Shown here: in pieces, positions 24,195 to 48,439 of the stretch
Layout of the letters: the number at the start of each line of letters is the position of its first letter
Numbering within the stretch: the first letter of the stretch is position 1
NCBI GenBank assembly: GCA_041648735.1
Contig: JBAZOO010000003.1
Span: 53,670 to 117,669 of the forward strand
Reading direction: 5' to 3'
DNA length: 64,000 nt
Source of the DNA: Lentisphaeria bacterium
Lineage (GTDB): Bacteria; Verrucomicrobiota; Lentisphaeria; Oligosphaerales; CAITYL01
Program-made: the position numbers and the translations under genes
The notes under the pieces: generated by a model
The model's database searches: none
Seen by the model: the letters and a program-made list of their open reading frames with translations, nothing else
Told to the model about the DNA's origin: nothing

Positions 24195-24272
24195 CGGAGC
24201 GTAGCGCAGTCTGGTTAGCGCGACTGCTTTGGGAGCAGTAGGTCGCGGGTTCGAATCCCGCCGCTCCGACCA
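24195..24272 (+). tRNA. tRNA-Pro (anticodon UGG), CCA encoded
   Basis: Acceptor stem CGGAGCG/CGCTCCG, D-arm GCGCAGTCTGGTTAGCGC, anticodon arm ACTGC-TTTGGGA-GCAGT (anticodon TGG), T-arm GCGGGTTCGAATCCCGC, discriminator A plus CCA. Folded by hand. Confidence 0.9.
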
Positions 24273-24348
24273 GTTTTCCCGGCCCCGGCGGCCGGCCTGC
24301 CCAACCGCGGGAAACCCCAACATAGCACGCGCCGGCAAAGTTGGAAGC

Positions 24349-24435
24349 GCCCGCGGAGTCCGCGGCGGGGGAAGTGTTTTCTCCGGGGTTTCCGTGTGCG
24401 CCGCGCGAAGACCGGATTTGCCTGCCCCCGCAAGG
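24349..24435 (+). repeat. dispersed 87-bp repeat, copy B (left boundary of island)
   Basis: GCCCGCGGAGTCCGCGGCGGGGGAAGTGTTTTCTCCGGGGTTTCCGTGTGCGCCGCGCGAAGACCGGATTTGCCTGCCCCCGCAAGG is 86/87 identical to copy C (40919..41005), in the same orientation. It starts 77 nt after the tRNA-Pro 3-prime end. Confidence 0.9.
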
Positions 24436-24663
24436 CTTCATCCCCGGCGGCTTCCGCGCCAGCGTCGCCTGGCGCGCCACCAACTGCCGCTCCTCGTTGG
24501 CCGCGATCTCCCCGTTCAGCCGTTCGACCTCCGCGATCCGGTCGGCCATCAGCAACTGGCCGGGGTCATCCCCGGCCTGACGCTCCGACTTCCGCCCGAA
24601 AAGCCGCTTCGGCAGCTTCGCCACCAGCCGCTTGAGCCGGGCTCTCGGCGTCTTTGCGGTCAT
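24436..24663 (-). pseudogene. short ORF overlapping the DUF499 stop (ATGA); possible truncated IS66-like N-terminal fragment
   Basis: MTAKTPRARLKRLVAKLPKRLFGRKSERQAGDDPGQLLMADRIAEVERLNGEIAANEERQ... The LFGRKSE motif is reminiscent of IS66-family transposase N-termini. The frame stays open through repeat B and antisense across tRNA-Pro (to 24169), so there is no credible native C-terminus. Confidence 0.25.
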
Positions 24664-27600
24664 GTCACCCGGAATCCCGACTTCAGGTCCTCCAGGATCT
24701 TGTTGATCTCTGCGACCGTGCCCTCATCGGGAGTGTGTTCGGCATCGCCGACCTCGATGCGGACTCGGAACTTGATGGGGCAGCCCGACTTGCTCTTGAT
24801 GGCCAGGAGCTGGGGAACGGCGTCTCCGAGATCCTGGATCCCGGAAGGGTCAAGCTCCGCCTCTGCCCATTTGACATTGGTCTCGTGGACTTCCCTGCCA
24901 CCGGAACCACCGCCGTAGCCGCCGCCGTAGCCACCGCCCTTTCCGCCGCTCGTCGCGACCTTGAGCTTGACGCCTTGGGCGGAGGGGTACTCACACGGCC
25001 ACGAACCGGAGGTCGGATCCAGTTCCGTGAACCGGGCGTTCAGTGACGCCGCAATGACCTCGCGCACGGTCTTCCATGGGAGCGTCTTCCCTGACTTCTG
25101 CGACAACGCCGTGGCCACTGCGAGGGCAGTCGTCTGGTCGTTGGCCCATGCGTCCGGCAGGTTCGCGGGCAGGATCTCGGCGGCCGCGATCATCGCCGGT
25201 GGCCGTTGGAGAGAGGCCTGGTTGCTGAGCACCCCGGCAGGGATGGGTTCGCCGAGGATGCTCGCGGGCCCGCTCGTGAGCCAGAGCGCGCCCTCTTCCA
25301 CCGCCAGTGTGACGCCTGCCTTGACCACCTCCTCGCGGGCCTTGGGGATCGCCAGCGGCTCCATGTACCCATTCCGCTGGACCTGGACGATGTTGCCGCC
25401 CTTGAAGTAGTCCACCACGTCCTGCACGCTGATGGCCTCGCCCGGCCACAATCCGGGCAGGCGGCCAGGGGCAAGCAGGGCAGGCGGGATGTCTCCCAGT
25501 TCAGCCGCTTCCGGCAATACCAGTTCAAGCGCGGGATCAGCCATGGCCGCCTCGTCAGGGCGCGAGCGCCACCAGGTACGTACGGAACCGTCGGGACGGC
25601 TGAGTCTCAGCACGAACGATCCCGCGTCACACCCGGCGACAAGAGTGTCGGCGATGGCTTGGGCCTTCAGCATCTTGGGCAGGTGTGGCAACTGCGCGAA
25701 CGCCCCGGACAGGTCCTTGACGCGGCGGCTCGTCTCGCCCTCCCGCCACAGATTGTATGGGCCGTCCGGCAGTAGTGCCTCGGCGGTGATCGAAGAGTCC
25801 TGAATCCGGGATCGGGAGTCGTTCTTGACGATGGTGAAATGCGCGTCTTCGGTCACGTTGATCTTGAAGGCCTGCACCTCGTTCCTGTCCGAAACGGAGA
25901 CGACCGTGCAGTACGCCTGCTTCACCGCGTCGGGGATACGGCCCCGAGCCTTGTCGCTGCTGATGGTCAGGGTCTGCAGGCGCGCCACGTCGACGTTGCC
26001 GTCCTTCTCCTGCTCCTTCAGATCCGACCGGACTTCCTCCCATGCCAGATAGTCGCGGACCCTGGCCGACGCCACCTCCAGTCCGTCCCGCGACGGTGCG
26101 AGCAGGATCAGTGCATTGCGGTAAACCCGGGGTTTCTCCGGGCCGGTCGTCTCATCCAGGTAGCGTTTGGCCTCGGCGCTGGGTTTCCCCGAATCGCTGG
26201 TGGCGCTTGGCCCGAGGATGCCGAAGTGGAACGCTCCGTCGTCCTCGATGTCGCGCGGCCGCGTTGGCAGCAGGTGGACGCGGACGCCTGCTGCGGAAGC
26301 CCCGGCGCTCAGGGTCTTGCACTTGCCGACCTCATCGAGCAGTCGCGCCCGCACCACATCGTCGGACACCCGGCTTGCCGCCACGGCGTGCATCTGAGTC
26401 AAGTTGGGGCGATTCCCCAGCCGCCAGGTATCCGGCAGCAGGTTCTCCTCGGTGGCGGCGTACCGGTCGTCGAGCCAGAAGCTGGTCTGCGCCCAGCGCG
26501 TCAGTCCCTTCTCCAGTTCGATCCGGTCGGGACGGCTGGGGGCGATGAGCACCATCAGGTCCCGGGTGCGCGCACTCTGGCCAATCGGCTGGGAATGCAG
26601 GAAGGTGGCGACAACGGCCTGCTCGACCTCCCGGTAACGAAGCCCCACCGATTCCCGTTGGATGTCGCGAGCTTTGCCGGTCTCGCCTTCGATGATCCCC
26701 GTCCACGCCTGCTTCTTGCCCTCGTGCTCTTCGGTGTCCGCCACCGTCACCAGCTCCCGCATCGCCTCCGAAAGCCCTTCGCGCTTGGGGTCGGCGAGGA
26801 ACACGGCGGGCCCCACCAGGGGGCTGGTATCCCAGCGCTCCGCCTCCCGTAGCGCCAGGGCGAAGGTCCGCAAGACGCCCCGGGTTCGCTGGAAGCGATC
26901 CAGTTGCGTCCATTTCGCATAGAAGACTTCCGTGAGGTCGGGGTGGAACGGGTAACTCCTCAAGAAGCGCTCCTCGGCCTCCGCGCCCTGCTTCTTCGTC
27001 TGCTCGTCGATATCGAACACCCCCTTGATCGCCGCTTGGACGTGGGCGCGGAACGCATCCTTGTCCTTGATCGATTCGGGAGTGAAGAACCGGCGGCGCA
27101 GCACTTCGGCCACGTCCTCCTTCACCACGGGCTCGACGATGGCCTCGCGCTGGCGCTGGAAGATGTCGTACAGCTCGCCCTGCAACTGCCGCCCGAAGCT
27201 GTCGCTTTTCGCCGGATCGCTGGCCAGCAGCGAGGCCACGACACAGCAGCGGTCGACCTTGGTCGCGGCCTGGGTCAGGTACTGGAAGAAGTTCACCATG
27301 CGGTCGCGCCACTTGCGGTCGGCGGAGACCTTCTCCCGGACATACATCAGGACTTCATCGATCAGGATCAGCACGCCCAGACCTTCCTTGACCGGCAGTT
27401 CCAGCAGTTCGGTCAAGGTGTTCTCCGCCGGAGCGGACTCGCGTTCGTCTGGCGACTTCCCGGCATTGAGCACCCGCAGACCTTCCTCGCCCGCCAGTTG
27501 CCACGCCAGGATGCTCCACGGCTGCACCAGCCGCCGGGTGTTGCCCTGCGGGTTCCGCACCTCCATGCCGGTCTCGACATCCAGCTTGTCGAAGCACAGC

Positions 27601-28025
27601 CCGGCCACCCGCGCCCGCGGCGGAGCCTGGCCTGCCTGTGCGTCGCACGCAGACAGGCCGATGGCTTCCTGGAATTCATGCACGGCGGGCAGGTCGGGCA
27701 ACTTCTCCGGGTCGGTGACCAGGTGCCGGAGCGTGATCAGCGTGTGCGTCTTGCCGCCGCCGTAGGTCAGGCTGAGCTGGCGCACCGCCTTGTCGTTCTT
27801 GCCCGCCACCCGCAGCACCACGTCCCGCACCAGTTGGCGCAGGTTGTAGGTGGGGAAGGTCAGCGCAAAGAAGTTGCTCGGGTCTTCATAGGTGGGCCGC
27901 TTGCCGCCCTGCATCATGACTTCATACAGGTCCGCCGCGAACATGTGCAGCGGCAGTTCGCCGGACTTCAGGTCATCCCGCAAGGTGACGACTTCGTGCC
28001 AGCTCTTCCATGGGTTCTTAGCCAT
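24660..28025 (-). CDS. DUF499-type P-loop ATPase (BrxC/PglY-like)
   Basis: N-terminus MAKNPWKSWHEVVTLRDDLKSGELPLHMFAADLYEV....YEDPSNFFALTFPTYNL..L and Walker A LTYGGGKTHTLITLRHL, then Walker B-like VLILIDEVLMY. This is the pattern I recognise for DUF499/COG1483. AGGAGGA lies 8 nt upstream of ATG 28025. A Gly/Tyr-rich linker sits near the C-terminus. Confidence 0.85.
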   Translation of the reverse strand: MAKNPWKSWHEVVTLRDDLKSGELPLHMFAADLYEVMMQGGKRPTYEDPSNFFALTFPTYNLRQLVRDVVLRVAGKNDKAVRQLSLTYGGGKTHTLITLRHLVTDPEKLPDLPAVHEFQEAIGLSACDAQAGQAPPRARVAGLCFDKLDVETGMEVRNPQGNTRRLVQPWSILAWQLAGEEGLRVLNAGKSPDERESAPAENTLTELLELPVKEGLGVLILIDEVLMYVREKVSADRKWRDRMVNFFQYLTQAATKVDRCCVVASLLASDPAKSDSFGRQLQGELYDIFQRQREAIVEPVVKEDVAEVLRRRFFTPESIKDKDAFRAHVQAAIKGVFDIDEQTKKQGAEAEERFLRSYPFHPDLTEVFYAKWTQLDRFQRTRGVLRTFALALREAERWDTSPLVGPAVFLADPKREGLSEAMRELVTVADTEEHEGKKQAWTGIIEGETGKARDIQRESVGLRYREVEQAVVATFLHSQPIGQSARTRDLMVLIAPSRPDRIELEKGLTRWAQTSFWLDDRYAATEENLLPDTWRLGNRPNLTQMHAVAASRVSDDVVRARLLDEVGKCKTLSAGASAAGVRVHLLPTRPRDIEDDGAFHFGILGPSATSDSGKPSAEAKRYLDETTGPEKPRVYRNALILLAPSRDGLEVASARVRDYLAWEEVRSDLKEQEKDGNVDVARLQTLTISSDKARGRIPDAVKQAYCTVVSVSDRNEVQAFKINVTEDAHFTIVKNDSRSRIQDSSITAEALLPDGPYNLWREGETSRRVKDLSGAFAQLPHLPKMLKAQAIADTLVAGCDAGSFVLRLSRPDGSVRTWWRSRPDEAAMADPALELVLPEAAELGDIPPALLAPGRLPGLWPGEAISVQDVVDYFKGGNIVQVQRNGYMEPLAIPKAREEVVKAGVTLAVEEGALWLTSGPASILGEPIPAGVLSNQASLQRPPAMIAAAEILPANLPDAWANDQTTALAVATALSQKSGKTLPWKTVREVIAASLNARFTELDPTSGSWPCEYPSAQGVKLKVATSGGKGGGYGGGYGGGSGGREVHETNVKWAEAELDPSGIQDLGDAVPQLLAIKSKSGCPIKFRVRIEVGDAEHTPDEGTVAEINKILEDLKSGFRVT

Positions 28026-28073
28026 TATGCCAGTCCTCCTGCTCGGCATTGCGTCTTGGATTGCGTCTAACAA

Positions 28074-28154
28074 TCAAATAAAACGCAATCGTTGTTAATT
28101 ATATCTCTTTGTAATTTAGGCTATTACAACTGTATATCTTGGATAGCCTTTGCG
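28074..28154 (-). promoter_or_regulatory. AT-rich spacer inside the operon, candidate internal promoter/UTR for the DUF499 gene
   Basis: Hand count of 28081-28140 gives ~27% GC in a ~60-70% GC context. This and the 27-nt spacer at 35532-35558 are the only sizeable intergenic gaps in the otherwise overlapping/abutting gene string. Confidence 0.3.
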
Positions 28155-29804
28155 TCATAGCTTGGTGTCTTTCGTAGAAACGACGCAATCTGCCATAACA
28201 GTCATCGGGTACCATTTGCCGGCCCGTGTCGTTCCTTCCAGGCGAATACGGTTTTCGTGTTTGAGTTGCCGAACTAAAGCTTGTACTTGGCATCTGGACA
28301 GACTCGGCAAGACTTGGAGCAATTCTTCCAGGCGACTGCCAGTATTGGCATTGTCCCGAATATGTTTAAGCAGCAGCTCCTTGTTGGTTTCTCGGTCAAG
28401 GCCGCGCTTTCTGGTGTAAACGCCTTTTTTGCCGATGGTGGCATAGAACCGTCGTCCCAGAATAAAGCGTCCGTGCGCAACCCGTTCGATTACACCACGG
28501 TCAATCAGGAACGGAATCCGATCCCGCAGATTATCGGGAACTGGTTGATCGCGGCGGACATGGTTGACCACGAGAAAATCAGCCGTTCCAAAACTCTGAA
28601 GGGTCTCCAAGCCGATACGCTCCATCATGGTCAACAGTTTAGGGTCTTGAACCAGACCGTCTAAGGTCAAGGTCACATGCATGCGATCCGTGCCTCTGAA
28701 GTCCGGGAGAGCTTTGGCCTGCTTGACGCTCAACTCGAACATCAGGTTCATCCCCTGCCCCGATCGTTCGACAAGGCCACAACGCGCCAGGATGTCGGCG
28801 ATCCGCCGGTTGCGTGGCGACTGCCGATCCAGGATGTTTTCCAGGGTGATGTCCGGCGGGAAACCACCGGGGCTGTCCACAACGAGCCGTTGCGGGTACT
28901 GGCGAACGAAGACGGGGCCGCCCAACTGGTAGTCGCGGTGGCACACGGCATTCAGCACGGCTTCGCGCACGACCCGTTCATCAAAGGTGAGCACATCGAA
29001 AACGAAGAGTCCGTCCTGATAGTGCTGCTTACTGTTGCGCAGATTAATCAATTCCCACAGCCGGTCGTGAAACGCGAAGAGACCCTGCCGGAACTCATCC
29101 CGCTGTTGAGCCGGACCCGATGCTTCATTGGCCCGGTATTCAAAAATCACCTCGGCCTGCCCAAGCAGACGGCCAAGAGCCTCCCGACGGCCAAAGAGGG
29201 TTAGGGCGGCATAGGTGACACCCTTGTCGGTGATCGCCTCGCAGTCAAGCAGCAACTGCTCCTGCGACTTTGCCGCTATGCCTGAAGATCTCGACTTCTC
29301 CAGCCACTTTCGCCTGAACGCTTCAATGGCATCGCCGTCCAGATCGGTCAGGTCAGCCCCCTTGCATATGTCCGCCGAGAAATCATGACCGACTTCGGCG
29401 AAGATCGCCCGCATCTCCTCCATCGGCATCTCGACCAGACTGTCGCCTTCCCGCCACCAGGTGATCCCCTTGTCCTGGATGGGCACACCCACCGGACGCG
29501 GCGGGATGTCGAACACCAGTATGCGTTTGCCCTCGTGATTGAGCAGATGAAAGTCGACCCGCAGCCGCAACCGTTCCATCAGGCCATTGCGCGTCCGTTC
29601 CGGTTGTTCGAATGCCTTGCTGCCGACAACTTGGCGCGGGCGCTTGTCGGTAATCCCGAACACCACATAACCTCCACCCCGATTGGCCAGGGCGCAGGCA
29701 TACTTGGCCAGGTCGTCGAATTCAAAGGAGTTCTCAGCCCGTTTGAACTCGATATTTTCGCCTTCCTTGGCCTCCAACAGCCAAGCTATTTCGGGAACTC
29801 TCAT
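28155..29804 (-). CDS. COG2865-type regulator: AlbA_2/Schlafen-like N-domain + HATPase_c_4-like domain + C-terminal winged HTH
   Basis: EGENIEFKRAENSFEFDDLAKYACALANRGGGYVVFGI (AlbA_2 pattern), REAVLNAVCHRDYQLGGPVFVRQYPQRLVVDSPGGFP (HATPase_c_4 pattern), and a C-terminal helical wHTH-like region. The start overlaps the MTase stop (ATGA at 29801-29804). Sample lines are ~53-55% GC. Confidence 0.8.
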   Translation of the reverse strand: MRVPEIAWLLEAKEGENIEFKRAENSFEFDDLAKYACALANRGGGYVVFGITDKRPRQVVGSKAFEQPERTRNGLMERLRLRVDFHLLNHEGKRILVFDIPPRPVGVPIQDKGITWWREGDSLVEMPMEEMRAIFAEVGHDFSADICKGADLTDLDGDAIEAFRRKWLEKSRSSGIAAKSQEQLLLDCEAITDKGVTYAALTLFGRREALGRLLGQAEVIFEYRANEASGPAQQRDEFRQGLFAFHDRLWELINLRNSKQHYQDGLFVFDVLTFDERVVREAVLNAVCHRDYQLGGPVFVRQYPQRLVVDSPGGFPPDITLENILDRQSPRNRRIADILARCGLVERSGQGMNLMFELSVKQAKALPDFRGTDRMHVTLTLDGLVQDPKLLTMMERIGLETLQSFGTADFLVVNHVRRDQPVPDNLRDRIPFLIDRGVIERVAHGRFILGRRFYATIGKKGVYTRKRGLDRETNKELLLKHIRDNANTGSRLEELLQVLPSLSRCQVQALVRQLKHENRIRLEGTTRAGKWYPMTVMADCVVSTKDTKL

Positions 29805-32800
29805 GCCTGTTCCTCCAGTGCGAAACGACCCTGTTTGTCATCCTTCACCGCCCCGCGTGCGCCGATGTGGTTGCTGAGGCTTTCCAGTAATGTACGCTCT
29901 TCGCTGCCACGCTCGGACAGCTCGATCAGGGACTGGACGAGGCGGCGGAACAGCTCGTGGCGGCGGAGGCCATTGTCGTCCAGGTATTCGTCGACCTTGT
30001 GGACGTCGCCCGCCCGCCAGAGGTGCATGAGCCGATGGATGCGGTCGATCAGGGGGACCGGACGGCCTGCCTGCCGCGACGCACTCGGCGCAGGCAGGCC
30101 GCTCGGCGCATCATAGCCCATGTTCCGACCCTGGCGCTGCGACCACGGCTTGAGCCTCATCTGGCCGCCGGAACTGGTGCCGCCAGAGTCGCTGTCCTCA
30201 TCGTCGGACAGGTCGGACTCGTCAGACGCGTCGGACTCATCCGCAAGCGGGACGCTTGCGCCACCCTTGGTCGAGATCAGATCCCAGGTGACTTCAAGGT
30301 CGTGATCGGAGATCCCGCAGGCGGTGGCGTAGAGAATGCAGGCTCCGGCGGGGGCTTCCTCGAGCCCGAAGTCATGGCGGTGCAGCAGGTAGTAGGCGGT
30401 CGGGCTGTCCATGTCTCCCAAGGGTGGCGCAACCGTCCCGGTTGCGATCTCTCCGGATGGCAAGCGGGACGCTTGCCCCACCATTACCTCACCAACGACG
30501 AAATCCACCACCATGCGGCGCACGTGGACGAGGAACTCGCCCACGCTCATGATCTGGCCGGGATCGTTGGCCTTCTTGACCACCGGGTGTTTGCTGTAGG
30601 CCTCCAGCGCCGGGCCGGTCGCGGCCCAGACAAAGTCCGGCCCGCGAATCCCCGCGTCCCAGAAGTCCCGCAGCCGCGTCGTGATATTGGCCCGCATCTC
30701 CTCCAGCACCCGGTTGTCCCAGCCCAGCCTGGCGGCGGTGGGGCGCTTTCGGCAGACAATCCACAGGGAGGAGGCAAGGGCGGCGGAGGCTATGCCTCTT
30801 GTCCGGTTCGCCATCTCTGTCTGGATCGGCCAACTGCCGTCGACGATGAAACCCGCCCGGATTATCGCCGACGCCAGCGTCTCCCATGCATCAGGATGCT
30901 TGTGAGCGAAAACAATGACGAGGCGGCCATCCGGCTGGAGGCTCTTCTCGCAGGCCACGAAGGCCCGCGCCATGCCGTCCTCGTAGGCAGCCTTGGACTT
31001 CTCCGCATCGCCGCCGTGGCGGCTGGAATCGTCGATCAGTTCACCGTCATTGGCCTCACGGTCCCATTTCGGCGACGTACTCGCCGCGAAGACCGAGGAA
31101 GGATCCAGCCGCGTGCCATGGACAACCCGTTTGATCCAGACGTAGAAGAAATCCATGCAATCGGAATAGGGAATGGCATCGTAGTAAGGCGGGTCCGTAA
31201 GAACAAGATCAAAGTTGCCAACAACGGTTTCTGTTGCTGAACGCTTCTGCACGGTCGGCTTGGCCAGATCACCTCCGGTATTGACCGCCGTATCAACTGA
31301 CCTGGTTACCGATCCCAGCATCGACTCCCAACTGCCTGATGCACCACCGATAGGATTAGTCTCGGCACAATCCCACTTGATCGGCAGGGCAAAACGGTTG
31401 AACAAGTGCGTGATCTGTTCGTTCTGGGTGTACCAGGATGCCAAGGAGCTTCCATAGTCAAGCATCTTGCTCATAACGCAGGCCAGATATGCCGCAGCGG
31501 CTTCGCGCCAGTCGGGCGGCAAGGCGGCGTCGCTGGTGGCGGTGACGCCCCGGATCTGCCGCACCAGCGTCCCCAGCGCCAGCAACTGCCGCGAGGTGAA
31601 CAGGTCGCACCACCGCATAAGGCCATAGCCCTGGATGGAGAACGCCCGACCCGCGCCACTGCCGCCCCCGGCGGGTGTGGGTTCCGTGGGCAACCCAAAC
31701 GGGATCTCGGCGAAGACGCGCTCAAGTTCGGCTGCGGCGCGGCTGGCGCAGTCGATCTCATGGGCGGTCGGTAGACGGTAGGCTTTGCTGGTCTGGCTCT
31801 CGGTGACCACGGCGGTGGCGACCATCCCCAACCGTCCGGCTTTGCCCTCGAACCGGATGTCCTCCATGGTCATGATGGCCGAGCAGCAGGGACACTGCGC
31901 CCCGGCCCGGGACATGGTGCCCGCGCCGATCCGCTTGTCGTGCTCGCGGCGCTGGGCGGCGTTGCCTCCCTGGGCCGGGACATCGGCGTCGATGCCAAAG
32001 ACCAGGGTGGGGCAACCGTCCCGGTTGCCATCTTCCTGCTCCACCTTCGCAAGCGGGACGCTTGCGCCACCCTTCACCTCCATGGTCAGCAGCACGCGCT
32101 TGTTGGCCTTCTTGCAGAGCCACCGAGTCTTGAGCAGCGGCACGGTAGCCCGGCAGTTCTTGCAGGTGACTGTGCGGGCCCAGAGATAGGCGACCGTCGG
32201 CTTGGCCACCCAACGCGGGTTCCGCTTGTCCGCCAGGTACTCCGCCGAGAACTCGGCGTTCAGCGCCTCGAGGTTCGGAGTGCCGTCGTCCTTGAGCGGC
32301 ACCAGACGCATCAAGGGTGGGGCAAGCGTCCCGCTTGCCTTCTTCTGAAAGCTCCAGAGCTGCTCGACCCTGGCCGTGTCGTACTCGCCCGCCCGAGCAC
32401 TCCCGACAACCGGGTTGTTCATGATGTACTGCTCGATCCGCCACAGGGACTGCGGACTCCGCACGATATGGTCGTAGCTCTCGTGCTGCCAGAACTCGCC
32501 TTCCCGGCCAAGGAGCTTGTTGATTGCATGGGCGGTGAAGGACTTCCAGGAATGCAGCACGTCGGAGAGGGTGTGGTTGTCCCTCGGTCTGACCAACGCA
32601 TGGACATGGTTGGGCATAATGCACCATGCCCCCAAGTCGTACCGACTCCCATCGAAATGCATCAAGGTGTCCGCGACGATCCGGCGAACCTGCGGACTCC
32701 GCAGATGGCACTCGCCCTCGCCAGCGTCCAGCCATGCCTCCATGCGATCATTGAAGAGACGGTAATACTCTTTGCGGAGTTCGGGGGTCAGTTCCGACTC

Positions 32801-33946: not shown

Positions 33947-35083
33947 CTATGAAAGGGCCTCCACGAGAGAGAAAGCGTCCGCCAATGTGGCGACCGAAGA
34001 TCCGGGGTAGCGACGCCATGAACCTTGCCCATGCTTAGAACGTTCAACTACGACTTCCTGTCCAGTCTTGCCGGCCTGTCGCACGCGCCAATCCCATCGG
34101 CGCCAGTCCGAGGCGGTGTAGACTCCCGCCTCGTCCGCAAGCCAGTTCGGTACGGTGATGCGGGTCAAGTCGGATAGGAATTCAGACGCGGAACGAGGAC
34201 GCTTGCTGCAGTCTGGATTGGTGGTAGCCCGCACCAGCCGGGACAGTTTGCTGGAGAAGTACGGCCGGGGCGTCCTCCCGTGCTCCAGCAGTTTGCCCCG
34301 ACGTGAAAAGTCAGCGATGCCATCGTCCACTGCACGAGACTTCTCGAAAGAATCCATCGTCGAGAAAGTCAGCTTCCGCCGGCGCAATTCCGCCTTCTTG
34401 GAACGGGAGAGGTAGTGCTCGTCATGGTAGTCCAGTTGACCGTTCACCAGTTCGTACAAGACCATTCCCACTTGGTAGAGATCGGATTGGGTCAAGTACT
34501 TGGACGGCGTTTCCCATCCCTCTGGCGGAACGTATAGAACGGAGTGCTTGGATGCCTGGATCGGTTGGTCATCCCCGGCCAGCAATGCCACCGACCCAAA
34601 ATCAGAAATTCGCGGGGTGTTCCCATGAAGCAGGATATTCGCTGGTTTGAGGTCGCGGTGGACCATCTGCTGCAAGTGTAGATGGGCAACCCCGGTCAGG
34701 ATACCCGCTGTTACCCTGACCGCGTCCTGTTGACCGAGGGGACCGTCAGATATCTTCCCGAGCAGGCTAACCCCAGAGACATATTCCATCTGAAGACACA
34801 GGAACTGGGATGAGTTAACCGTCATGATCTCGGCATCAAATACTTGAACCAAGTTCGGGCAAAGGGATGGGGCTTTCGTCGCCTCCACAAGCAGTCGTGG
34901 CTCGCGCAGCACACCGGAGCGATTTTCGTGTATGTAGTCATAGACCTTGAGGAAAACATCCCGGTCAAGGTGCGTGTGGCGGGCTTTGAACGCGAACGCA
35001 TTCGCACCTTCGTGGATCTCCACTAGATCGGCATACTTTCCCGTAGCCTTCAAGGCATCACTGATCTGACCGGTTGTCGCCAT
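33947..35083 (-). CDS. Ser/Thr protein kinase (Hanks-type) with uncharacterised C-terminal domain
   Basis: VFLKV (VAIK-like Lys), catalytic loop VHRDLKPANILL, DFG as ISDFGSV, PPE (APE-like), DLYQVGMVLYEL. The stop TAG abuts the MTase ATG (33947/33946). Start MATTGQ at 35083, 1 nt after the upstream stop. A sample line is ~48% GC. Confidence 0.85.
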   Translation of the reverse strand: MATTGQISDALKATGKYADLVEIHEGANAFAFKARHTHLDRDVFLKVYDYIHENRSGVLREPRLLVEATKAPSLCPNLVQVFDAEIMTVNSSQFLCLQMEYVSGVSLLGKISDGPLGQQDAVRVTAGILTGVAHLHLQQMVHRDLKPANILLHGNTPRISDFGSVALLAGDDQPIQASKHSVLYVPPEGWETPSKYLTQSDLYQVGMVLYELVNGQLDYHDEHYLSRSKKAELRRRKLTFSTMDSFEKSRAVDDGIADFSRRGKLLEHGRTPRPYFSSKLSRLVRATTNPDCSKRPRSASEFLSDLTRITVPNWLADEAGVYTASDWRRWDWRVRQAGKTGQEVVVERSKHGQGSWRRYPGSSVATLADAFSLVEALS

Positions 35084-35084
35084 C

Positions 35085-35531
35085 TTACATGACACTCCAC
35101 GCGCAATATGTGGCTCTTTCGACATATTTCAATGCTATCGGTTTTCCACCCCAGAAGGCCGCCTCCATCGTTGCACCCGCCGTGCCCGCGAATTTCTTCT
35201 GCTTGCTGGCAACCGTCTGCGGTGCCACAAGAAGACAGGGTACACTTGCCTGCTTTGCCGCCAACTGGACTACGCATTCCATCTTGCACCGAGAGACCGA
35301 ACAACCTTTATCAACTGCTCGCAATACGGCCACTTTTTCGATCTTCTTGTCACGAATCACCGCATGGACAATGTCTTTCAGCCGCAAGAGGTTCCCCGCG
35401 TCATCATTTTCAGACTGGGGAAATGGTTGCTTTGGCACATCGAGGTTCTCAGCCCTCCCGCCACTGGCGGTACCGTCCAAGATGACCCAGACCAAGTCAG
35501 AGGCATGGATATCAACACCGAGTACTCTCAT
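35085..35531 (-). CDS. small RNase H-fold / RuvC-like protein (DUF3010-like, tentative)
   Basis: MRVLGVDIHASDLVWVIL (beta-strand with Asp, like the first strand of RNase H-like folds), KIEKVAVL....CKMECVVQLA. The resemblance to DUF3010 is from memory only. 148 aa, lower GC, abuts the kinase gene. Confidence 0.45.
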   Translation of the reverse strand: MRVLGVDIHASDLVWVILDGTASGGRAENLDVPKQPFPQSENDDAGNLLRLKDIVHAVIRDKKIEKVAVLRAVDKGCSVSRCKMECVVQLAAKQASVPCLLVAPQTVASKQKKFAGTAGATMEAAFWGGKPIALKYVERATYCAWSVM

Positions 35532-35558
35532 TGCCGGCTCCTTGTTGTCTTATCACTG

Positions 35559-35712
35559 TTACACCACCCCCGCTTCGGTCACTTGCTGCTGCGAGATGCT
35601 TACCCCACCCGTCTCAATCGTGGCCGTGATCGTTCGGGTGACGGCTTGGCTCTTGCTGAACGGGCGGACGAGCAGCTTGTCGAACGGATCCTGCACCCGC
35701 ACGAGTTGCAGT
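35559..35712 (-). repeat. orphan duplicate of the helicase 3-prime end (~154 bp)
   Basis: Aligns with 36817..36970 and includes a 46-bp identical block GGCTCTTGCTGAACGGGCGGACGAGCAGCTTGTCGAACGGATCCTG; overall identity is ~80-85% by eye. It encodes [48 protein letters not shown], versus the helicase C-terminus [48 protein letters not shown]. Confidence 0.85.
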
Positions 35713-35720
35713 GACGCGCG

Positions 35721-35734
35721 CACGGCGTGCCGTG
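35721..35734. repeat. REP2 palindrome (degenerate) downstream of RAYT2
   Basis: CACGGCGTGCCGTG, a variant of CCACGGCATGCCGTGG. Confidence 0.6.
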
Positions 35735-35792
35735 GGCGTACCGATGGGACAGCGCTAGGTGCCCCAAGTGCGCGGGATAGGGGGGGGGCAAG

Positions 35793-35808
35793 CCACGGCA
35801 TGCCGTGG
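35793..35808. repeat. REP2 palindrome downstream of RAYT2 stop
   Basis: CCACGGCATGCCGTGG, a perfect 16-bp palindrome, 26 nt beyond the RAYT2-SLOG stop. Confidence 0.8.
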
Positions 35809-35833
35809 CCGTGCGGATGGGGACTGGGGGGCA

Positions 35834-36814
35834 TCATAGGTACACCACCTCCTTTTCCGGGTTGGCCTCGGAGAGGAGGCAGGCGAGCATGCCGTCGGGG
35901 TTGAGGTTGCCCACGACGAGGCGGTCGCAGTGCTCGATGACGTACTGGTTGCACCAGACGGCGCGGCGGGCGTTGGGGGTATCGAGCCCGGCATCGAAGG
36001 GTGAGGCCAGCAACAGGCGCCCCTCGGCCAGGGCCACTTCCGCAGCACCACGGCATGCCGTGATGCCACCAACGGCATCCAACCCCCAGGGCACGACCCA
36101 GACCATGGGGCGGCGGTGTTCGAGGCAGGCCTTGAACACCGCCTGCTCCATGGGCGAGAGGAAGCCGGAAATGACCGCTTCGCCGGGCTTGAGCGGCAGC
36201 CTGCCATGCGGGTTCTCCTCGCCACGCGAGGCGAGGAAGCCCACCTTTGGCAGGTCCAGAAGGGCGCGGTTGCCGAGGTACTGTGGCTCGGCGCCCTGCA
36301 TGACAGCGGCGAAGTTCTCGGGATTGTGGCGAATGTAGGCACGAATGTTCTCTCGCGCGGCATCGTCGCGGGCCCGCATGTCGTAAAACCGGCTCTGCCA
36401 GAGCTTCTCCCCGAGGGCGCGGGTGACCGCGCCCTTGTACGAGCGCAGGATGGTTGGTATCGAGCCGGCCACTGGCTTGCCGAAGGCCTCCATACGGGCA
36501 CGGCATGCCGTGGCCCCACGTGCCGTGGCCCCGACGAGTTGCAGCAGGCCATGCACATGATTGGGCATGACCACGTACTCGTCCAAAACGGCCCGAGGGA
36601 AATGCGCCGGGATTTCGCGCCAGCACCGGTCCGCGACCTTGCCGGCCTCGTTCTGCACCATGTGCCCGCTGACGACCGTGCCGAAGACCGAGCGCATGTT
36701 CTGGGTGCAGATGGTGAGGAAATACCAGCCGGGGCTGGAGTAGTCCCAGCCCTGGAGGCGGAGGTTCTTGCGGCGCCCCACGGCATGCCGTGGGGGCGCG
36801 GAAAGCGTCGGCAT
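35834..36814 (-). CDS. RAYT (IS200/IS605-type Y1 HUH transposase) fused to a DprA/SLOG-like Rossmann domain
   Basis: N-terminal half: LQGWDYSSPGWYFLTICTQN, HUH VMPNHVHGLL, Tyr motif LWQSRFYDMRARDDAARENIRAYIRHNP. C-terminal half: VGFLASRG.....AVISGFLSPMEQAVFKACLEHRRPMVWVVPWGL...ALAEGRLLLASPF......RRAVWCNQYVIEHCDRLVVG, which resembles DprA/SLOG topology by eye. The ATG at 36814 lies 2 nt after the helicase stop. Confidence 0.7.
   Translation of the reverse strand: MPTLSAPPRHAVGRRKNLRLQGWDYSSPGWYFLTICTQNMRSVFGTVVSGHMVQNEAGKVADRCWREIPAHFPRAVLDEYVVMPNHVHGLLQLVGATARGATACRARMEAFGKPVAGSIPTILRSYKGAVTRALGEKLWQSRFYDMRARDDAARENIRAYIRHNPENFAAVMQGAEPQYLGNRALLDLPKVGFLASRGEENPHGRLPLKPGEAVISGFLSPMEQAVFKACLEHRRPMVWVVPWGLDAVGGITACRGAAEVALAEGRLLLASPFDAGLDTPNARRAVWCNQYVIEHCDRLVVGNLNPDGMLACLLSEANPEKEVVYL
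36048..36062. repeat. REP2 palindrome inside RAYT2-SLOG CDS
   Basis: CCACGGCATGCCGTG. Confidence 0.7.
36499..36528. repeat. two adjacent REP2 palindromes inside RAYT2-SLOG CDS
   Basis: CACGGCATGCCGTG (36499-36512) and CCACGTGCCGTGG (36516-36528). They encode GATARGATACR. Confidence 0.7.
36776..36795. repeat. REP2 palindrome, perfect 20-mer, at the 5-prime end of RAYT2-SLOG
   Basis: CCCCACGGCATGCCGTGGGG, within codons 7-13 of the gene (PPRHAVG). Confidence 0.85.
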
Positions 36815-36816
36815 GG

Positions 36817-39800
36817 CTACACCTCCCCCGCTGCGGTCACTTGCTGCGGCGAGATGCGCACTCCGCCAGACTCGACCGTCGCCGTGATCGTCCGGGGGAC
36901 GGTCTGGCTCTTGCTGAACGGGCGGACGAGCAGCTTGTCGAACGGATCCTGTACCCGAACCAGTTGCGGGGTCGGGGTAGCGCAGTGATAGGCCACGTAG
37001 AGCCAGTAATCGTCGCGCAGATTGCAGGCGCGGGCCCACTCGTTGTCGGTGACTTCGATCTCGCCGATGGATGCCCGCCCCTTGACCTCGATGCAGCGGC
37101 GATCAAAGGTGGGGCAACCGTCCCGGTTGCCATCTGCGGAGTTCGCAGGCGAGACGCTTGCGCCACGCTTTGGCCGCAGCGAAAGGATGTCGAACCCCGG
37201 ATTCTCGGGAAGCCCCGCAGCGCGGGCGAGTTCGGGCGTATGGACAAAGCGCACGTCCGCCCCCGACGCTTCCTCGTAGGCCTTGACCAGGTTCATGGCG
37301 ATCTGTTCGACGTTGGCATCGAGCCGTTCGCGGTCGGCCTTGGCGGCGGAGGGCACAACGAGGGCATGGGCGATGAAGTCCGTGTTGCCGGGCACCAGCA
37401 GCTCCGGTTCGCGGCGGATGATCGCCAAGGCCCGGTCCCGACGGTCGTGCAGTTCGCGCTGCTGATCCTTGATCCGGGAGAGTTCAGCGGCGGCCCCCTT
37501 GTTCCCGTCCCGCGCTTTCGGGGTGAGCTTGGCCCGCGAGGCCGCCAGTTCCGCTTCCTGGAAGTCGAAGCCACGTTCCACAAAGGACTCACGCTTGGGC
37601 AAGGCGGCCATCATCTGGTTTCGGCGGTCGACGGCCATCCCACGGCAGACCCGCTCCATGAGGTAGGCGTTGGCTTGATCGCGCAGCTTGGTTGCCGCCA
37701 CGGCCAGGCGCTGGGCCTGCGGAGGCAGCCCTTCGCCACCGCGCAGGAGCAGCAAGTGTTCCACGGGGCACAATGAAATGTCGGCCCCTTCGGTCTGACG
37801 GACTCCGACGAGACGGCACACGACGGTTTCCTCGTGAGCCAGTCGAGAAGGTGGGGCAACCGTCCCGGTTGCCGTCTTGTCGGTTGCGGAGTTCGCACGC
37901 GGGACGCTTGCGCCACACTCGGGATCGGCTTTCCGTACCACAGTCAGGCGGGCCAGGTGGAAGAGGTAGGGTTTGTCCGCCGTGGGATCGACAAAGACGG
38001 CACCCCGGAGGGCGTCCCGCCCCAGCCGCTGTCGCACCAGTTCGCGGAAACGCTCGAAGACCGGCTCGCCGGGATGCATCCAGATGCAGGACTGCCGGCC
38101 TGCCGGCGCCGCGCCCGTCGCGGCAGGCAGGTCATCCGGGCGCTGGACAGAAAGGTGCCGCGACATGGTGGGCGAATAGGCGTCCATGGCTTCAAACAGT
38201 GGATCGGCCGCCCCTTTCCTGGCGGGCACGAGATCGAAGGTTGAGCCGAGATCGCCGTCCACTTCGATGCCGACCTGCGGGGCGGCCGATTCCACAAAGC
38301 GGCGGACATAGCCGGGGAGCAGGCGGAAGAACGTTTCATGCTCGATTCCCTCGCGCAGGCGCGGCAGTTCTCTTTTGACGTCCCCGCCATCGCCATAGAG
38401 GCGCCGCTCGCGTTCCTCGATGGCCTTGACCTGTTCCTTGGTCAACTGACCGTCGAGTTCCTCGGCCACGGCCTCGGCTCCGTCCCGCAGCGCCCGCTCC
38501 ATGTAGTCCTTGATCGAGACCCCCACGAACACGCGGCCGATGCTGTCGAAGACCTTGTCGGACTTGAGCTGCTTACGGATCTTCTCCAGCTTGTCGAGCA
38601 GCGTCTTGAGCACTCGGCCTTCGCGGGTCGCGGGGGCGATCAGGTTGACGATGCACACGGGATCGTGTTTCTGCCCGTAGCGATGAATCCGCCCCATGCG
38701 CTGTTCAAGCCGGGCCGGGTTCCAGGGGATGTCGTAGTTGACCATGATCCAGCAGAACTGGAGGTTGACGCCCTCGGCGGCGGCATCGGTACAAACCATC
38801 AGCCGCGCTCCCCCCTCGGCGGCGGGAAGGCGGAAACGCTCGATCTGGTCTTGGCGCTCCGTGAAGTGCATGCCGCCGTGAATCTGGGCGATGTGGCCCG
38901 CGTATCCCATGCCGCCGAGTCGGCGCACCAGGAAGTCCATGGTGTCGCGATGCTCGGTGAAGATGAGCATCTTCTCCTGGACGTAGCGGCTGTCCGTGAT
39001 CACTTCACGCAGTCGGTCGAACTTGGACTCGACTCCGGCGTCATGGACGTGCTGGGCGAGGTTACGAAGCGCGACGACCTGTTCGCGTTCCGCGAGGAGT
39101 TCCGCCAGGGACTCGGCGATGACTCCCTGGAGCAGCGTGTCTTCGGCCGCCTCATTCTCCTCGACCCCTTCGGTGGTGCTCTCCTCGTCGGCCGCCTTCG
39201 ACTCGAAGACATCGTCGTCCTCTTTGATCCGGCACTGAAGGGTGAGCAACTGTTCGATGGTGAGTCGTCCAGCCTGGATGTCCTCGATGATCTGGTCCAG
39301 CTTGCCGAGACGACGTTTGAAGGAACACAGCAGCGCATAGGTCGAACTGGCCAGGCGGCGCTGGAACACCCCCATGGCCAGGCGGGCGGCGGACTGGTTG
39401 AGCACCTTGGCCTTGTTGTAGACGTGGCGCAGGTACTCGGTGGTCTCGTCGTAGAGACGCTGCTCACCGACTTCGCCAGCGGAAAGCTGGAAACCGAGGG
39501 TGTCGCATTGCCGGATCGGGTACAGAGGCTGACCGTCCAGGCGAACCATCTCCTCCTTGGTACGGCGGATGAAGTAGTGCTGCCGTCGCTCGGTCGGGAA
39601 GTGCTCGAAGGCCTCGAGCGTCGTCAGGACGTCGGGTTCGAGCAGCCGCCAGAGCGCGTAGTACGGGTAGTCCTTGCCCATGTGCGGCGTGGCGGTCAGG
39701 AGAAGCAAGTGGTGGGCATGCCATGGCAGAGAAAAGGTGGGGCAACCGTCCCGGTTGCCATCTTTCGTGGGGCAACCGTCCCGGTTGCCATCTTTCGCAA

Positions 39801-40671
39801 GCGAGACGCTTGCGCCACCATTGTAGACACCCGCGAGAGCCTCGGCGAGTTTATAGCGGGATGTCTTTCGGATACGGAAGTCGTTGCCACGGTCACAGGC
39901 GAGCTTGTGCGCTTCGTCGAAGACGACCAGCTCGTAGGGCGCAACGGCATCTTCGGCCAGCCGCGCGAAGACGCGTTCCCCCGCCAACGTATCGACACTT
40001 ATGATGACGCGCTCGCTGCCGGGGCCAGCGAATGGATTCCCGTTCTTCGCGTCCTGCCCGGTGACAATGCGGAATGGCAGGTTGAAGAGGACCTGCAGTT
40101 CCCGCTGCCAATTGCCGACCAGTCCAGCCGGAGGCACAATCAGCACGCGGGACAGCAGTCGCCGCGACAGCATCTCGCGCACGTACAGGCCGGTCATGAT
40201 CGTCTTGCCCGCGCCCGCGTCGTCGGCCAGCAGGAAGCGCAACCGGGCATGCGGCAGCATCCGGTCGTAGACTGCGATCCGCTGATGCGGCAGCGGATCG
40301 ATACTCGAGATCTCGGTGGCGAAGGTGGGGTTGGCCAGGTGGCCGAAGGATAGGCGCTCGCCTTCGACCAGAACGCGGACCACTTCAGGCTTCGCGGTGA
40401 AGTCCAGCAGCGGCGGTTCCGCAGTGCAGGGCGGCGGCTCCGGCTCAGCGCCCCCCGACCCTGCGGCCCTTTCCTTGTCGCCCTCGTCCTTGCTGAGATC
40501 GAGGATGGCTTGCCAGGACAACTGCGATGGACGCGACTTCCCGTTCTCCCACCGGTTGACCGTGGGGAACGACACTCCCAGGCGTTCGGCCAGGGCGACC
40601 TGCGTCAGCCCCAGCTTCGCCCGCAGACCCTTGATCTGCTCTGGATAGTCGTCTGTCATTCCGTCCGCCAT
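36817..40671 (-). CDS. XRE-type HTH + SNF2-family helicase + C-terminal DUF3883-like (PD-(D/E)xK-like) domain
   Basis: HTH [33 protein letters not shown]. Helicase motif I [13 protein letters not shown], motif II [9 protein letters not shown], motif III [8 protein letters not shown], motifs V/[13 protein letters not shown]...[24 protein letters not shown]. C-terminal [36 protein letters not shown]. Start at ATG 40671 (alternatives 40659 or 40779). Carries three in-frame REP1 elements. Confidence 0.85.
   Translation of the reverse strand: [1284 protein letters not shown]
37108..37166 (+). repeat. REP1 full element inside helicase CDS (C-terminal nuclease-like region)
   Basis: GGTGGGGCAACCGTCCCGGTTGCCATCT...CGCAGGCGAGACGCTTGCGCCAC. 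It encodes [23 protein letters not shown]. Confidence 0.85.
37850..37916 (+). repeat. REP1 full element inside helicase CDS
   Basis: GGTGGGGCAACCGTCCCGGTTGCCGTCT...CGCACGCGGGACGCTTGCGCCAC. It encodes [24 protein letters not shown]. Confidence 0.85.
39736..39819 (+). repeat. REP1 element with tandemly duplicated unit A inside helicase CDS (between helicase motifs II and III)
   Basis: GGTGGGGCAACCGTCCCGGTTGCCATCTTTC GTGGGGCAACCGTCCCGGTTGCCATCTTTC GCAAGCGAGACGCTTGCGCCACC. It encodes [31 protein letters not shown]. Confidence 0.9.
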
Positions 40672-40918
40672 GTCCGAAAGCTGCCTCCAGTTGGGTGGCA
40701 AAAGAACATGAACCAGACTATAGCGTCTGATATATCGCCGGCCAAGCCCCCACGCGATGACTGCCACCGGCCGACCCATGCAGGCCCCGCGCAGGCCCGC
40801 ATCGAACAGCTTCGGGCGCGGTCATGGAAGCCGGCGGCGGCTTGGCTGGCGACCGTCGGAGAAGGGTCGGAAGGCGGCGCGCGCCCAATGACCTCTCCGA
40901 GGGCAAGGCGGGGTGTTT

Positions 40919-41005
40919 GCCCGCGGAGTCCGCGGCGGCGGAAGTGTTTTCTCCGGGGTTTCCGTGTGCGCCGCGCGAAGACCGGATTTGCCTGCCCCCG
41001 CAAGG
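40919..41005 (+). repeat. dispersed 87-bp repeat, copy C (right boundary of island)
   Basis: Identical to copy B except G/C at the 21st base, in the same orientation. It lies between the helicase upstream region and yjbQ. Confidence 0.9.
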
Positions 41006-41024
41006 CCCGCCGGGCCGGGGCCGC

Positions 41025-41441
41025 TCACTCGCCGATGATCTTGACCAGGACGCGCTTGCGGCGGCCGCCGTCGAACTCGCCGTAGAAAAGCTGCTCCCAC
41101 GGCCCGAGGTCGAGCTTGCCTTCGGTCACCGCGACAACCGCCTCGCGCCCCATGACCTGGCGCTTGAGATGGGCGTCGGCATTGTCCTCGTAGCCGTTGT
41201 GGCGGTACTGGGAATAGGGGCGCTCCGGGGCGAGCTTCTCCAGCCAGGCCTCGAAGTCCTGGTGCAGCCCCGCCTCGTCGTCGTTGATGAAGACCGAGGC
41301 GGTGATGTGCATGGCGTTGACCAGGCAGAGCCCCTCGCGGATGCCCGATTCGCGCAGGCACTCCTCGACCTGGGGGGTGATGTTGATGTACTCCCGGCGG
41401 CGGGAGGTGTTGAACCACAGCTCCTGGCGATAGCTTTTCAT
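41025..41441 (-). CDS. yjbQ: YjbQ/UPF0047 family protein (secondary thiamine-phosphate synthase-like)
   Basis: [10 protein letters not shown]....[23 protein letters not shown]...DFE.WLEKL.P......YRHN...[41 protein letters not shown] matches the family pattern. Confidence 0.85.
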
Positions 41442-48348: not shown

Positions 48349-48439
48349 GGCTCCGTGCGAACCTTCCCTCCCGCGCTTCCGGGCGTCCGGGAAGGTGAAC
48401 GTGGATGCTTCCAGGCCACGGCCGGCCGGAAGAACGGGG

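Follow-up and report, generated by a model that had tools for sequence, protein, structure and literature searches.

An Hma defence island between tRNA-Pro and yjbQ of a Lentisphaeria bacterium, bracketed by members of a dispersed repeat family and carrying RAYT and REP sequences in frame in its core genes

The 64,000-nt stretch of DNA from an uncultured Lentisphaeria bacterium analysed here (the window; contig JBAZOO010000003.1 of assembly GCA_041648735.1) contains, between a tRNA-Pro gene and the conserved host gene yjbQ, a probably horizontally acquired defence island (24437-40918, 16.5 kb), which is compositionally foreign and integrase-free and is bracketed by two near-identical direct repeats (Table 1). 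The island is one operon of the Hma system, alias the type-1 DUF499-centred system related to bacteriophage exclusion (BREX). Its core genes hold, in frame, a transposase domain resembling REP-associated tyrosine transposases (RAYTs) together with a set of repetitive extragenic palindromic (REP) units.

An earlier note made from the sequence alone had described the locus as a tRNA-adjacent island between direct repeats, and most of that description stood. A single tRNA-Pro (TGG) was placed beside the island by both ARAGORN and Rfam, being the sole match in an Rfam gathering scan of the window, and the left-hand repeat begins 77 nt past the tRNA 3′ end, as was borne out by reading both copies in the sequence. 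The two repeats have the same orientation and a single mismatch, the unit being 88 bp (87/88 identical) instead of the 87 bp given previously. The flanking genes are purB, mazG and proB on the left and yjbQ and a ROK kinase gene on the right, with the correction that proB lies on the minus strand, divergent from tRNA-Pro. All genes between the repeats are on the minus strand and of defence or mobile types, as judged from open reading frames (ORFs), Pfam and PADLOC.

Table 1. Features of the Hma island and its surroundings. Positions are those of the window, except for the tandem arrays, which are located on contigs of metagenome Ga0265297.
Feature	Position (nt)	Strand	Evidence or remark
Copy A of the 88-bp family	16601-16688	+	91-93% identical to B and C; fuller palindromic element
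tRNA-Pro (anticodon TGG)	24195-24272	+	ARAGORN; Rfam RF00005 71.8 bits; at island left border
Copy B, left bracket	24349-24436	+	87/88 identical to C
IS66-family TnpC N-terminal (leucine-zipper) fragment, 74 codons	24440-24663	-	Pfam PF13007 8e-8; cut off by copy B
hmaC (DUF499 AAA+ ATPase)	24660-28025	-	Pfam PF04465 9e-23; PADLOC HmaC 3.6e-74
Schlafen/AlbA_2 + HATPase_c_4 cargo gene (COG2865 type)	28155-29804	-	Pfam
hmaB (DUF1156 N6-adenine methyltransferase, 1381 aa, in-frame insertions)	29801-33946	-	Pfam PF06634 1.4e-17
RAYT1, HUH/Y1 transposase domain in frame in hmaB (aa ~294-546, ~250 aa)	32309-33067	-	Pfam Y1_Tnp 33.4 bits, cut-off 23
Seven REP units in hmaB, in frame	30243-30265, 30423-30445, 30460-30482, 32006-32028, 32049-32071, 32316-32338, 33002-33024		
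Ser/Thr protein kinase cargo gene	33947-35083	-	Pfam Pkinase 6e-32; PADLOC mad6 7e-34
DUF3010 cargo gene	35085-35531	-	Pfam PF11215 1.5e-7
Remnant copy of hmaA 3′ end	35560-35716	-	157 nt, 86-87% identical to 36818-36974; direct repeat
RAYT2, free-standing RAYT-like gene, 326 aa	35834-36814	-	Pfam 17.5 bits, NCBIfam REP_Tyr_transpos 49.8 bits, both under cut-off
hmaA (HTH + SNF2 helicase + NOV_C/DUF3883 nuclease)	36817-40671	-	Pfam; PADLOC HmaA 1e-142
Seven REP units in hmaA, in frame	37108-37130, 37145-37167, 37850-37872, 37895-37917, 39736-39758, 39766-39788, 39797-39819		
Promoter-like site upstream of hmaA (TTGGCC-17-TATAGT)	40717-40745	-	Consensus match only
Copy C, right bracket	40919-41006	+	18 nt from yjbQ stop codon
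yjbQ (UPF0047), host gene bearing recombination junction	41025-41441	-	Pfam PF01894 6e-37
Junction in yjbQ	41300-41319		ENA contig k141_491155 alignment; Logan contig ends
Copy D, degenerate	48285-48375 (outer limits approximate)	+	62-69% identity
Tandem arrays of the 88-bp family in Ga0265297	L007 5834-6332; L013 19-763; L006 1361-1534		Inter-copy sequence conserved

The core genes hmaA, hmaB and hmaC are co-oriented in one locus (24660-40671, minus strand). Pfam domains identified in hmaA were SNF2-rel_dom, Helicase_C (1e-23) and NOV_C (5e-13), while the PADLOC match to HmaB (4e-115) was split over two stretches of the gene, of which the DPPY motif (TDPPYYDAIPYSD) was invariant in the HmaB alignment A2. 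Two related operons served for comparison, L070 from an ENA metagenome and L073 from a JGI one, with core proteins 73-80% identical to those of the window (75-78% for hmaC). The layout hmaA-cargo-hmaB-cargo-hmaC and its orientation are kept in both, with wholly different cargo and different chromosomal neighbours, and the gene content therefore marks the island as a well-stocked but otherwise ordinary example of a defence system that is known and horizontally mobile. The definition of Hma is due to Payne et al. 2021 (PMC8565338), and the system was reclassified in a 2026 Nucleic Acids Research paper as the type-1 DUF499-centred BREX-related system (PMC12839542). In about 66% of hma operons, further defence genes sit between the core genes, and protection by the helicase-nuclease against phage T4 has been shown, for Halomonas HmaA only (PMC11232893).

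The cargo in the window comprises a Schlafen-HATPase gene, of a type reported to be frequent in BREX and BREX-related loci (PMC12839542), a Ser/Thr protein kinase gene, a DUF3010 gene and the RAYT-like gene RAYT2. The kinase resembles the kinase domain of Mad6 of the methylation-associated defence system (MADS), with an NCBIfam score far under the cut-off. Membership in MADS was rejected, since the kinase alone resembles Mad6 and the mad2 match is limited to the methylase catalytic motif. For the pairing of kinase and DUF3010 cargo, no description was found in the literature searched. Two copies of the hmaA 3′ end bracket RAYT2, the remnant copy forming an ORF of 54 codons, and the 157-nt duplicate looks like the footprint expected from cargo exchange via recombination between two hma alleles. 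The leftmost gene of the island is the IS66 fragment, with a host-like GC content at third codon positions (GC3) of 0.92; an intact IS66 tnpA-tnpB-tnpC set with terminal inverted repeats was looked for, and 74 N-terminal tnpC codons only were present. That this fragment represents a conserved small gene downstream of hmaC was considered and rejected, as it is missing from the Hma loci of L070 and L073.

Base composition sets the island apart, and its mosaic nature was roughly as described earlier when GC and GC3 were calculated per gene. Whole-gene GC was 57% in the kinase gene, 53% in DUF3010, 57% in the Schlafen gene and 64-66% in hmaA, hmaB and hmaC, with host genes at about 70%; the corresponding GC3 values were 0.66, 0.58, 0.67 and 0.80-0.84, to be compared with 0.89-0.95 in host genes. 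The island is thus compositionally foreign (GC3 0.58-0.84 against the host range), and the tetranucleotide distance was raised across 26-36 kb of the window in the composition profile. As previously claimed, a Pfam search of the island genes showed no tyrosine or serine integrase domain. With eight genes tiling 24440-40671, there is no room left for an integrase, and neither an integrase nor a serine recombinase was present among them.

The 88-bp unit is a member of a lineage-specific, dispersed and intergenic repeat family. Four copies (A-D) were located in 83 kb of the source contig, all on the plus strand and all between genes, and no further copies were found in the 19 kb of contig added to the window; in 100 shuffles, the 40-nt core of the repeat gave 0 matches. 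When a degenerate 34-nt core matching all four copies was run against a metagenome collection that does not include the source metagenome, 26 core matches were obtained on 13 contigs (~950 kb in total) of metagenome Ga0265297, representing a related genome, with 0 matches within genes after two stop-to-stop ORF overhangs had been set aside. The canonical element in this metagenome is an imperfect palindrome (TTCGCACGGAG...CACGGGGAA / TTCCCCGTGG...CTCCGTGCGAA), and its inverted arms are visible in the Ga0265297 copies and likewise in copy D of the window (TTCGCACGGAGGCCACGGGGAA / TTCCCCGTGGCCTCCGTG). Tandem arrays of seven copies with a 47-nt period, four copies with a 237-nt period and three copies with a 70-nt period were also present. 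A reading of these arrays as CRISPR-like was rejected, as the “spacers” are conserved, so that the arrays are rather of the type of bacterial interspersed mosaic elements (BIMEs).

No member of the family was present in Hma loci of other genomes or in any further Lentisphaerae locus retrieved, and searches of plasmids, phages and viral contigs returned nothing relevant for the island, for the REP unit or for the 88-bp core. No Rfam match to a known RNA family was obtained for the 88-bp unit, and a search for terminator or promoter signals yielded nothing for copies A and B and a single weak terminator-like match for copy C. Folding of the unit was no better than that of shuffled sequences (z from -0.8 to +0.4), copies B and C being without the left arm. 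Neither target-site duplications nor terminal inverted repeats were seen around B or C.

With further copies at 16601 and ~48328 and a dispersed family in Ga0265297, a private duplication of an attachment (att) site is not supported for the 88-bp pair. That B and C form a related pair was upheld. Copy A retains part of the left arm, which B and C lack with cut points only 2 nt apart, and B and C derive from one another, since this shared truncation and their 99% identity stand against a median between-locus identity of 69% for the family in Ga0265297, where pairs of ≥98% identity make up only 2%. Of the three full copies in 83 kb, two coincide exactly with the island borders; by a rough estimate, which is not a tool result, ~0.1% of random placements of three copies over ~70 intergenic sites would hit both borders. 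The 3′ 32 nt of tRNA-Pro occur once in the window, no part of the gene is duplicated, and the repeat lies clear of it.

Two genes near other copies of the family were observed in addition. An AAA_14/DUF4143 ATPase gene (16839-17972) directly follows copy A and has a GC3 of 0.78, below host level, and is possibly another accessory gene at a repeat copy. About 400 nt from copy D, an AhpC peroxiredoxin gene (47216-47899) has a GC of 51% and GC3 of 0.62 amid surroundings of 70% GC.

A recombination junction was observed to the right of the island, inside yjbQ. The final 15 kb of ENA contig k141_491155 (ERZ27247363, 80.5 kb) has 0 mismatches to window positions 26817-41318, a stretch which takes in the greater part of the island together with copy C and the 3′ 294 nt of yjbQ. 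Beyond this point the two sequences diverge, with 21 mismatches and 2 indels in 91 nt (41319-41409), and the remaining 535 bp of the contig (L088 1-535) were unalignable, containing a different ORF end in place of ROK and a 350-nt spacer, with no match among the other sequences compared. The two YjbQ proteins are identical from residue 39 on and clearly diverged before. A graph branch at 41319 requires a k=31 unitig to stop at 41289, and the ends of Logan k=31 contigs from four runs, entering from the right flank, fit this position (41289, 41290, 41298 and 41301). Across at least five data sets, two different sequences thus adjoin the right end of the block of island, copy C and 3′ yjbQ. On the simplest reading, we infer that the block was exchanged between diverged genomes by homologous recombination. 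The suggestion that the island was delivered by recombination is strengthened by this identical block joined to a different yjbQ 5′ end; the assumption that the island boundary lies at the repeat is not, as the right-hand junction seen is ~300 nt beyond copy C.

The source sequence was also found in JGI samples 3300036987, 3300037046 and 3300037657, in an ENA assembly, in a metagenome-assembled genome (MAG) at NCBI and in several Logan assemblies. These conspecific contigs were 100% identical to the window, and each either contains the island junctions or ends within one of the repeat copies. The left island junction was seen in two JGI samples and the right one in three JGI samples and one ENA sample. 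Look-ups of 12 exact proteins likewise gave conspecific contigs of 100% identity throughout, except for the yjbQ 5′ end in one ENA contig. Outside this group, identity in the proB protein search jumps from 100% to 77%. A scan of genome contigs for proB returned 46 loci, the best at 77% identity and none syntenic with the window, with tRNA-Pro beside proB in a Kiritimatiellota MAG only; the next relatives (74-77% proB identity) are non-syntenic, the 74% relative having ychF-proB-proA.

Two HUH/Y1 RAYT-like sequences are present in the island, as had been noted, the first of them (RAYT1) being an in-frame part of hmaB and not a separate gene. It lies within the 1381-aa hmaB ORF, which is called as one gene in the JGI annotation. 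Its score for NCBIfam REP_Tyr_transpos was 69.5 bits, under the cut-off of 80, and inspection by eye shows an intact HUH motif (HVH) and an intact YIxxNP tyrosine motif. The sequences of the RAYTs had no match in the PDB. Most HmaB homologues (~1090 aa) are without a RAYT, and more than 20 clusters from several phyla carry PF01797 according to the HmaB search. The RAYT1 insert was present at the same hmaB site in homologues P0123 (81% identity), P0124 (77%) and P0127 (59%), and a clearly homologous RAYT occupies a second HmaB site, ~90 residues downstream, in P0140, P0161, P0174 and P0189. RAYT1 is flanked by two of the REP units in hmaB (33002-33024 and 32316-32338), and the RAYTs of P0123, P0124, P0127, P0140, P0161 and P0174 are likewise flanked, each by lineage-specific REP peptides. 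At the RAYT1 site of P0138 a GIY-YIG nuclease is found instead. GIY-YIG domains at this internal site were further observed in P0148 and P0156, and an N-terminal Macro domain in P0146 and P0168; insertion or fusion of enzymatic domains seems to be frequent in HmaB.

The second sequence, RAYT2, lies 2.8 kb from RAYT1 and is missing from L070 and L073. For its C-terminal half (~160 aa), no Pfam, NCBIfam or PDB sequence match was obtained; by eye only, it resembles a Rossmann-like domain of DprA/SLOG type. A separate palindrome, CCACGGCATGCCGTGG, occurs five times around or inside RAYT2 (35720-35735, 35793-35808, 36048-36063, 36498-36513 and 36778-36793; 0.14 expected by chance), two of the five falling within the reading frame, and may be RAYT2's own REP.

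The REP unit of the hma genes is a 23-nt palindrome (GGTGGSGCAASCGTCCCGSTTGC). In 83 kb of the source contig, 14 of 14 units were inside hmaA or hmaB, in L070 (1543-19876) 19 of 19 inside hmaA, hmaB or hmaC, and in L073 (11138-11203) 2 of 2 inside hmaB. No unit was found in cargo genes, spacers or host flanks across these three loci (35 units), and it is on three loci only that the confinement to hma genes is based. The units form inverted doublets folding as hairpins (DNA fold z = -5.4, -5.3, -3.8 and -2.5 for four doublets), and alignment to homologues without interruptions shows them as clean inserts 10-32 residues long, some common to loci with 80%-identical proteins and others lineage-specific. 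The unit is stop-free in all six frames, of which four are used (GGASVPL 15, VAQASRL 2, NRDGCPT 10 and ATGTVAP 8), and the two arginine-rich frames are never used among the 35 units, which are not all independent. Seven of eight insertion positions fell in loops or disordered linkers of an AlphaFold model of an uninterrupted homologue (medium confidence, mean pLDDT 60).

The REPIN peptides, encoded by these REP doublets, were also looked for in other protein families. A search of a representative library gave four low-complexity false matches (Ig-repeat proteins and short repeats), and a word-indexed search gave no match. Nor was a description of the in-frame RAYT/REP pattern found in the searchable literature on REP/RAYT, Hma or BREX-related systems; “transposase” and “TnpA” have 0 occurrences in the BREX-related paper (PMC12839542). 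A second type of palindrome (GGCCTGCCTGC...GCAGGCAGGCC) was observed in hmaB (30058-30101) and hmaA (38096-38139), in opposite orientations and encoding an in-frame 11-residue peptide, with a similar insert of the GGCCTGCCTGC...GCAGGCAGGCC type at the same HmaB position in P0138.

Tentatively, and at slightly less than even odds, these observations may be explained by a RAYT-REPIN element specialised to the reading frames of the hma core. Its transposase would be a domain of HmaB, its REPs would be placed only in hmaA, hmaB and hmaC, in permissive loops and with two peptide-friendly frames per orientation, and it would co-transfer with the operon. The module may be a selfish element hiding in genes under strong selection, or may be a single-strand nuclease and hairpin module co-opted by the defence system.

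Overall, the locus is best explained as a horizontally acquired Hma island moved by homologous recombination, with the 88-bp units as dispersed host repeats and the RAYTs as passengers, a reading to which we would assign a probability of roughly 0.55. The island would have been inherited or exchanged via homologous recombination with the surrounding host DNA rather than by a recombinase of its own, one recombination junction falling inside the conserved neighbour yjbQ. The B/C duplication would most likely have originated in an extra step, through recombination of the block at a resident copy situated between tRNA-Pro and yjbQ or through gene conversion with that copy, the 88-bp repeats thereby acting as portable homology and not as classical att sites. 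RAYT1 and the REP hairpins would constitute a separate small element lying in frame in the hma core genes and travelling with them.

Several points weigh against this explanation. No empty site or island-free relative was found among the conspecific contigs and nearest relatives, so that the island may be a long-term resident rather than an insertion. The junction evidence concerns the right-hand side only, where one junction was seen in two contexts, and k141_491155 could be a chimeric path through a repeat of ~429 bp (the yjbQ 3′ part, copy C and 29 nt). If this 429-bp repeat occurs twice in one genome, the yjbQ junction shows duplication and not transfer; a second ENA contig matching the right flank appears to end at ~40890, 29 nt left of copy C, a position obtained by coordinate arithmetic only. 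Moreover, a double crossover in the flanks alone makes no 88-bp direct duplication, for which either gene conversion or the integration of a circle at a copy already resident has to be added. The 88-bp family is also sparse here, with three of the four copies in 83 kb lying within 24 kb, and a local duplication is an equally good description.

An unlikely alternative is that of a classical integrative island, in which a site-specific recombinase would have inserted a circle at an 88-bp attB downstream of tRNA-Pro, with B as attL and C as attR, and the integrase would have been lost later, for example in the event which truncated the IS66 gene. Near-identical direct repeats do lie exactly at the borders of a foreign block beside a tRNA gene, DNA has been lost where the truncated mobile-element gene abuts copy B, and a phage integrase was nearby in 19% of the hmaA neighbourhoods surveyed (PMC11232893). 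However, the eight island genes include no integrase or serine recombinase and leave no space for one, and the repeat is clear of the tRNA gene, of which no 3′ end is duplicated. The third repeat copy 7.7 kb upstream and the dispersed family with its tandem arrays are unlike att sites, the junction to the alternative context falls inside yjbQ, 300 nt past copy C, and this Hma clade occurs in other genomes without such repeats.

Equally doubtful is a coincidental or secondary flanking, by which the Hma operon would be an old resident and the 88-bp units, resembling MITEs (miniature transposable elements with inverted repeats) or REPs, would have been inserted independently or homogenised by gene conversion and would carry no information on the arrival of the island. 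The dispersed and intergenic nature of the family agrees with this, as do near-identical copies at different loci in 2-5% of pairs in the Ga0265297 relative and the presence of the island in all conspecific assemblies, and the GC3 of 0.80-0.84 in the hma core, part-way to the host value, suggests some residence time. Yet only three full copies exist in 83 kb, and two of these are exactly at both borders. B and C are cut 2 nt apart and copy A is uncut, which favours the copying of one truncated unit, and neither B nor C was seen to be accompanied by target-site duplications or terminal inverted repeats.

Mobilisation of the whole island by the HUH/Y1 RAYTs, using the 88-bp repeats as ends in a peel-and-paste manner of IS200/IS605 type, is highly improbable. 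The RAYTs are the sole intact candidates for DNA cleavage or joining in the island, with HUH and tyrosine motifs intact, but the cognate hairpins of RAYT1 are the REP units, which are unlike the 88-bp unit, and the folding of the latter does not exceed that of shuffled sequences. Y1 transposases act on short single-stranded elements and are not known to move 16-kb blocks or to leave long direct repeats. RAYT1 is a conserved hmaB insert in genomes with different flanks and without the 88-bp family, RAYT2 is missing from both related loci, and the RAYTs, in which the earlier note had seen the only candidates for DNA breaking or joining, are passengers of the hma genes and not drivers of the island. 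A false join of the island between tRNA-Pro and yjbQ through the 88-bp unit is scarcely credible, for although short-k assemblies break at every repeat copy and one ENA contig links the island to another context, the left junction was recovered independently in two JGI samples and the right one in three JGI samples and one ENA sample, all identical, and 88 bp is less than the read length and k-mer size (k141).

The stretch of most deviant composition in the window, surpassing the island in this respect, is at positions 6001-10000, with a GC of 53-57% against ~68% and a tetranucleotide distance of 0.39-0.45, where the genes are of glycoside hydrolase and esterase types (L074 annotation). Two further direct repeat pairs, both unrelated to the 88-bp family, were found at 2015-2064 / 12527-12576 (50 nt, 98% identity) and at 56150-56207 / 57524-57581 (58 nt, 95% identity).

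In comparison with tRNA-associated integrative islands, the locus shares the tRNA neighbour, the foreign composition, the direct repeats at both borders and the defence cargo. It differs in having no integrase and repeats which exclude the tRNA 3′ end, in that the repeat comes from a dispersed family with a third copy nearby, and in that the alternative junction is inside a neighbouring gene. For E. coli and other pan-genomes, hotspots have been described in which defence islands lie between conserved core genes and are exchanged through homologous recombination in their flanks. The window resembles these in its variable defence block between conserved genes (tRNA-Pro/proB and yjbQ) and in the identical block with diverged flanks and a breakpoint inside a conserved gene; it differs in that one junction was seen in two contexts, and no island-free or alternative-island allele was recovered. 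The locus thereby adds a case of a tRNA-adjacent, repeat-flanked defence operon which is probably not integrase-driven, the block seemingly having been exchanged through homologous recombination for which a dispersed host repeat and a conserved gene next to it supplied the homology, and it calls for caution where island finders take every direct repeat at a border for an att site.

With Hma or type-1 BREX-related loci the operon has in common the SNF2 helicase with a C-terminal DUF3883/NOV_C (PD-(D/E)XK) nuclease, the DUF1156 methylase and the DUF499 ATPase, as well as the co-oriented genes, the embedded defence genes and the Schlafen-HATPase cargo. The in-frame RAYT domain of hmaB and the 14 in-frame REP units in hmaA and hmaB are what distinguishes it. 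In-frame palindromic elements or MITEs in protein-coding genes are known from Rickettsia (reviewed in PMC10969869) and Coxiella (PMC5896051). As in Rickettsia, short palindromic mobile elements are here tolerated as in-frame peptides in loops, but those of Rickettsia are spread over many unrelated genes of one genome without a transposase inside the host gene, whereas the present elements stay with one operon across genomes and have the transposase in the same reading frame.

A likeness to REPIN-RAYT systems (Nunvar 2010; Bertels and Rainey 2011) lies in an HUH/Y1 transposase with RAYT-like motifs that has its REPs on both sides, in the arrangement of these REPs as inverted doublets with long hairpins, and in REP sequences that vary along with the lineage of the RAYT. 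By definition REPs lie outside genes, being known as genome-wide elements present in tens to hundreds of copies, and the RAYT of such systems is encoded by a stand-alone gene in single copy (PMC2817692, PMC3116915), the function of the two having been a question since 2010. In contrast, the RAYT is here in frame in a methylase, and all 35 REPs at the three loci are intragenic, in hmaA, hmaB and hmaC only. If true, a RAYT clade lying in frame in a methylase at two sites across lineages, with conserved catalytic motifs and REPs restricted to one defence system, would offer a small and tractable setting for asking what a RAYT does and why it is kept, and would add a candidate single-strand nuclease to Hma and BREX-related systems. 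The defence island itself is a further case of a known system, and the RAYT/REP module, confined at the three loci to the Hma core genes, is its unusual feature.

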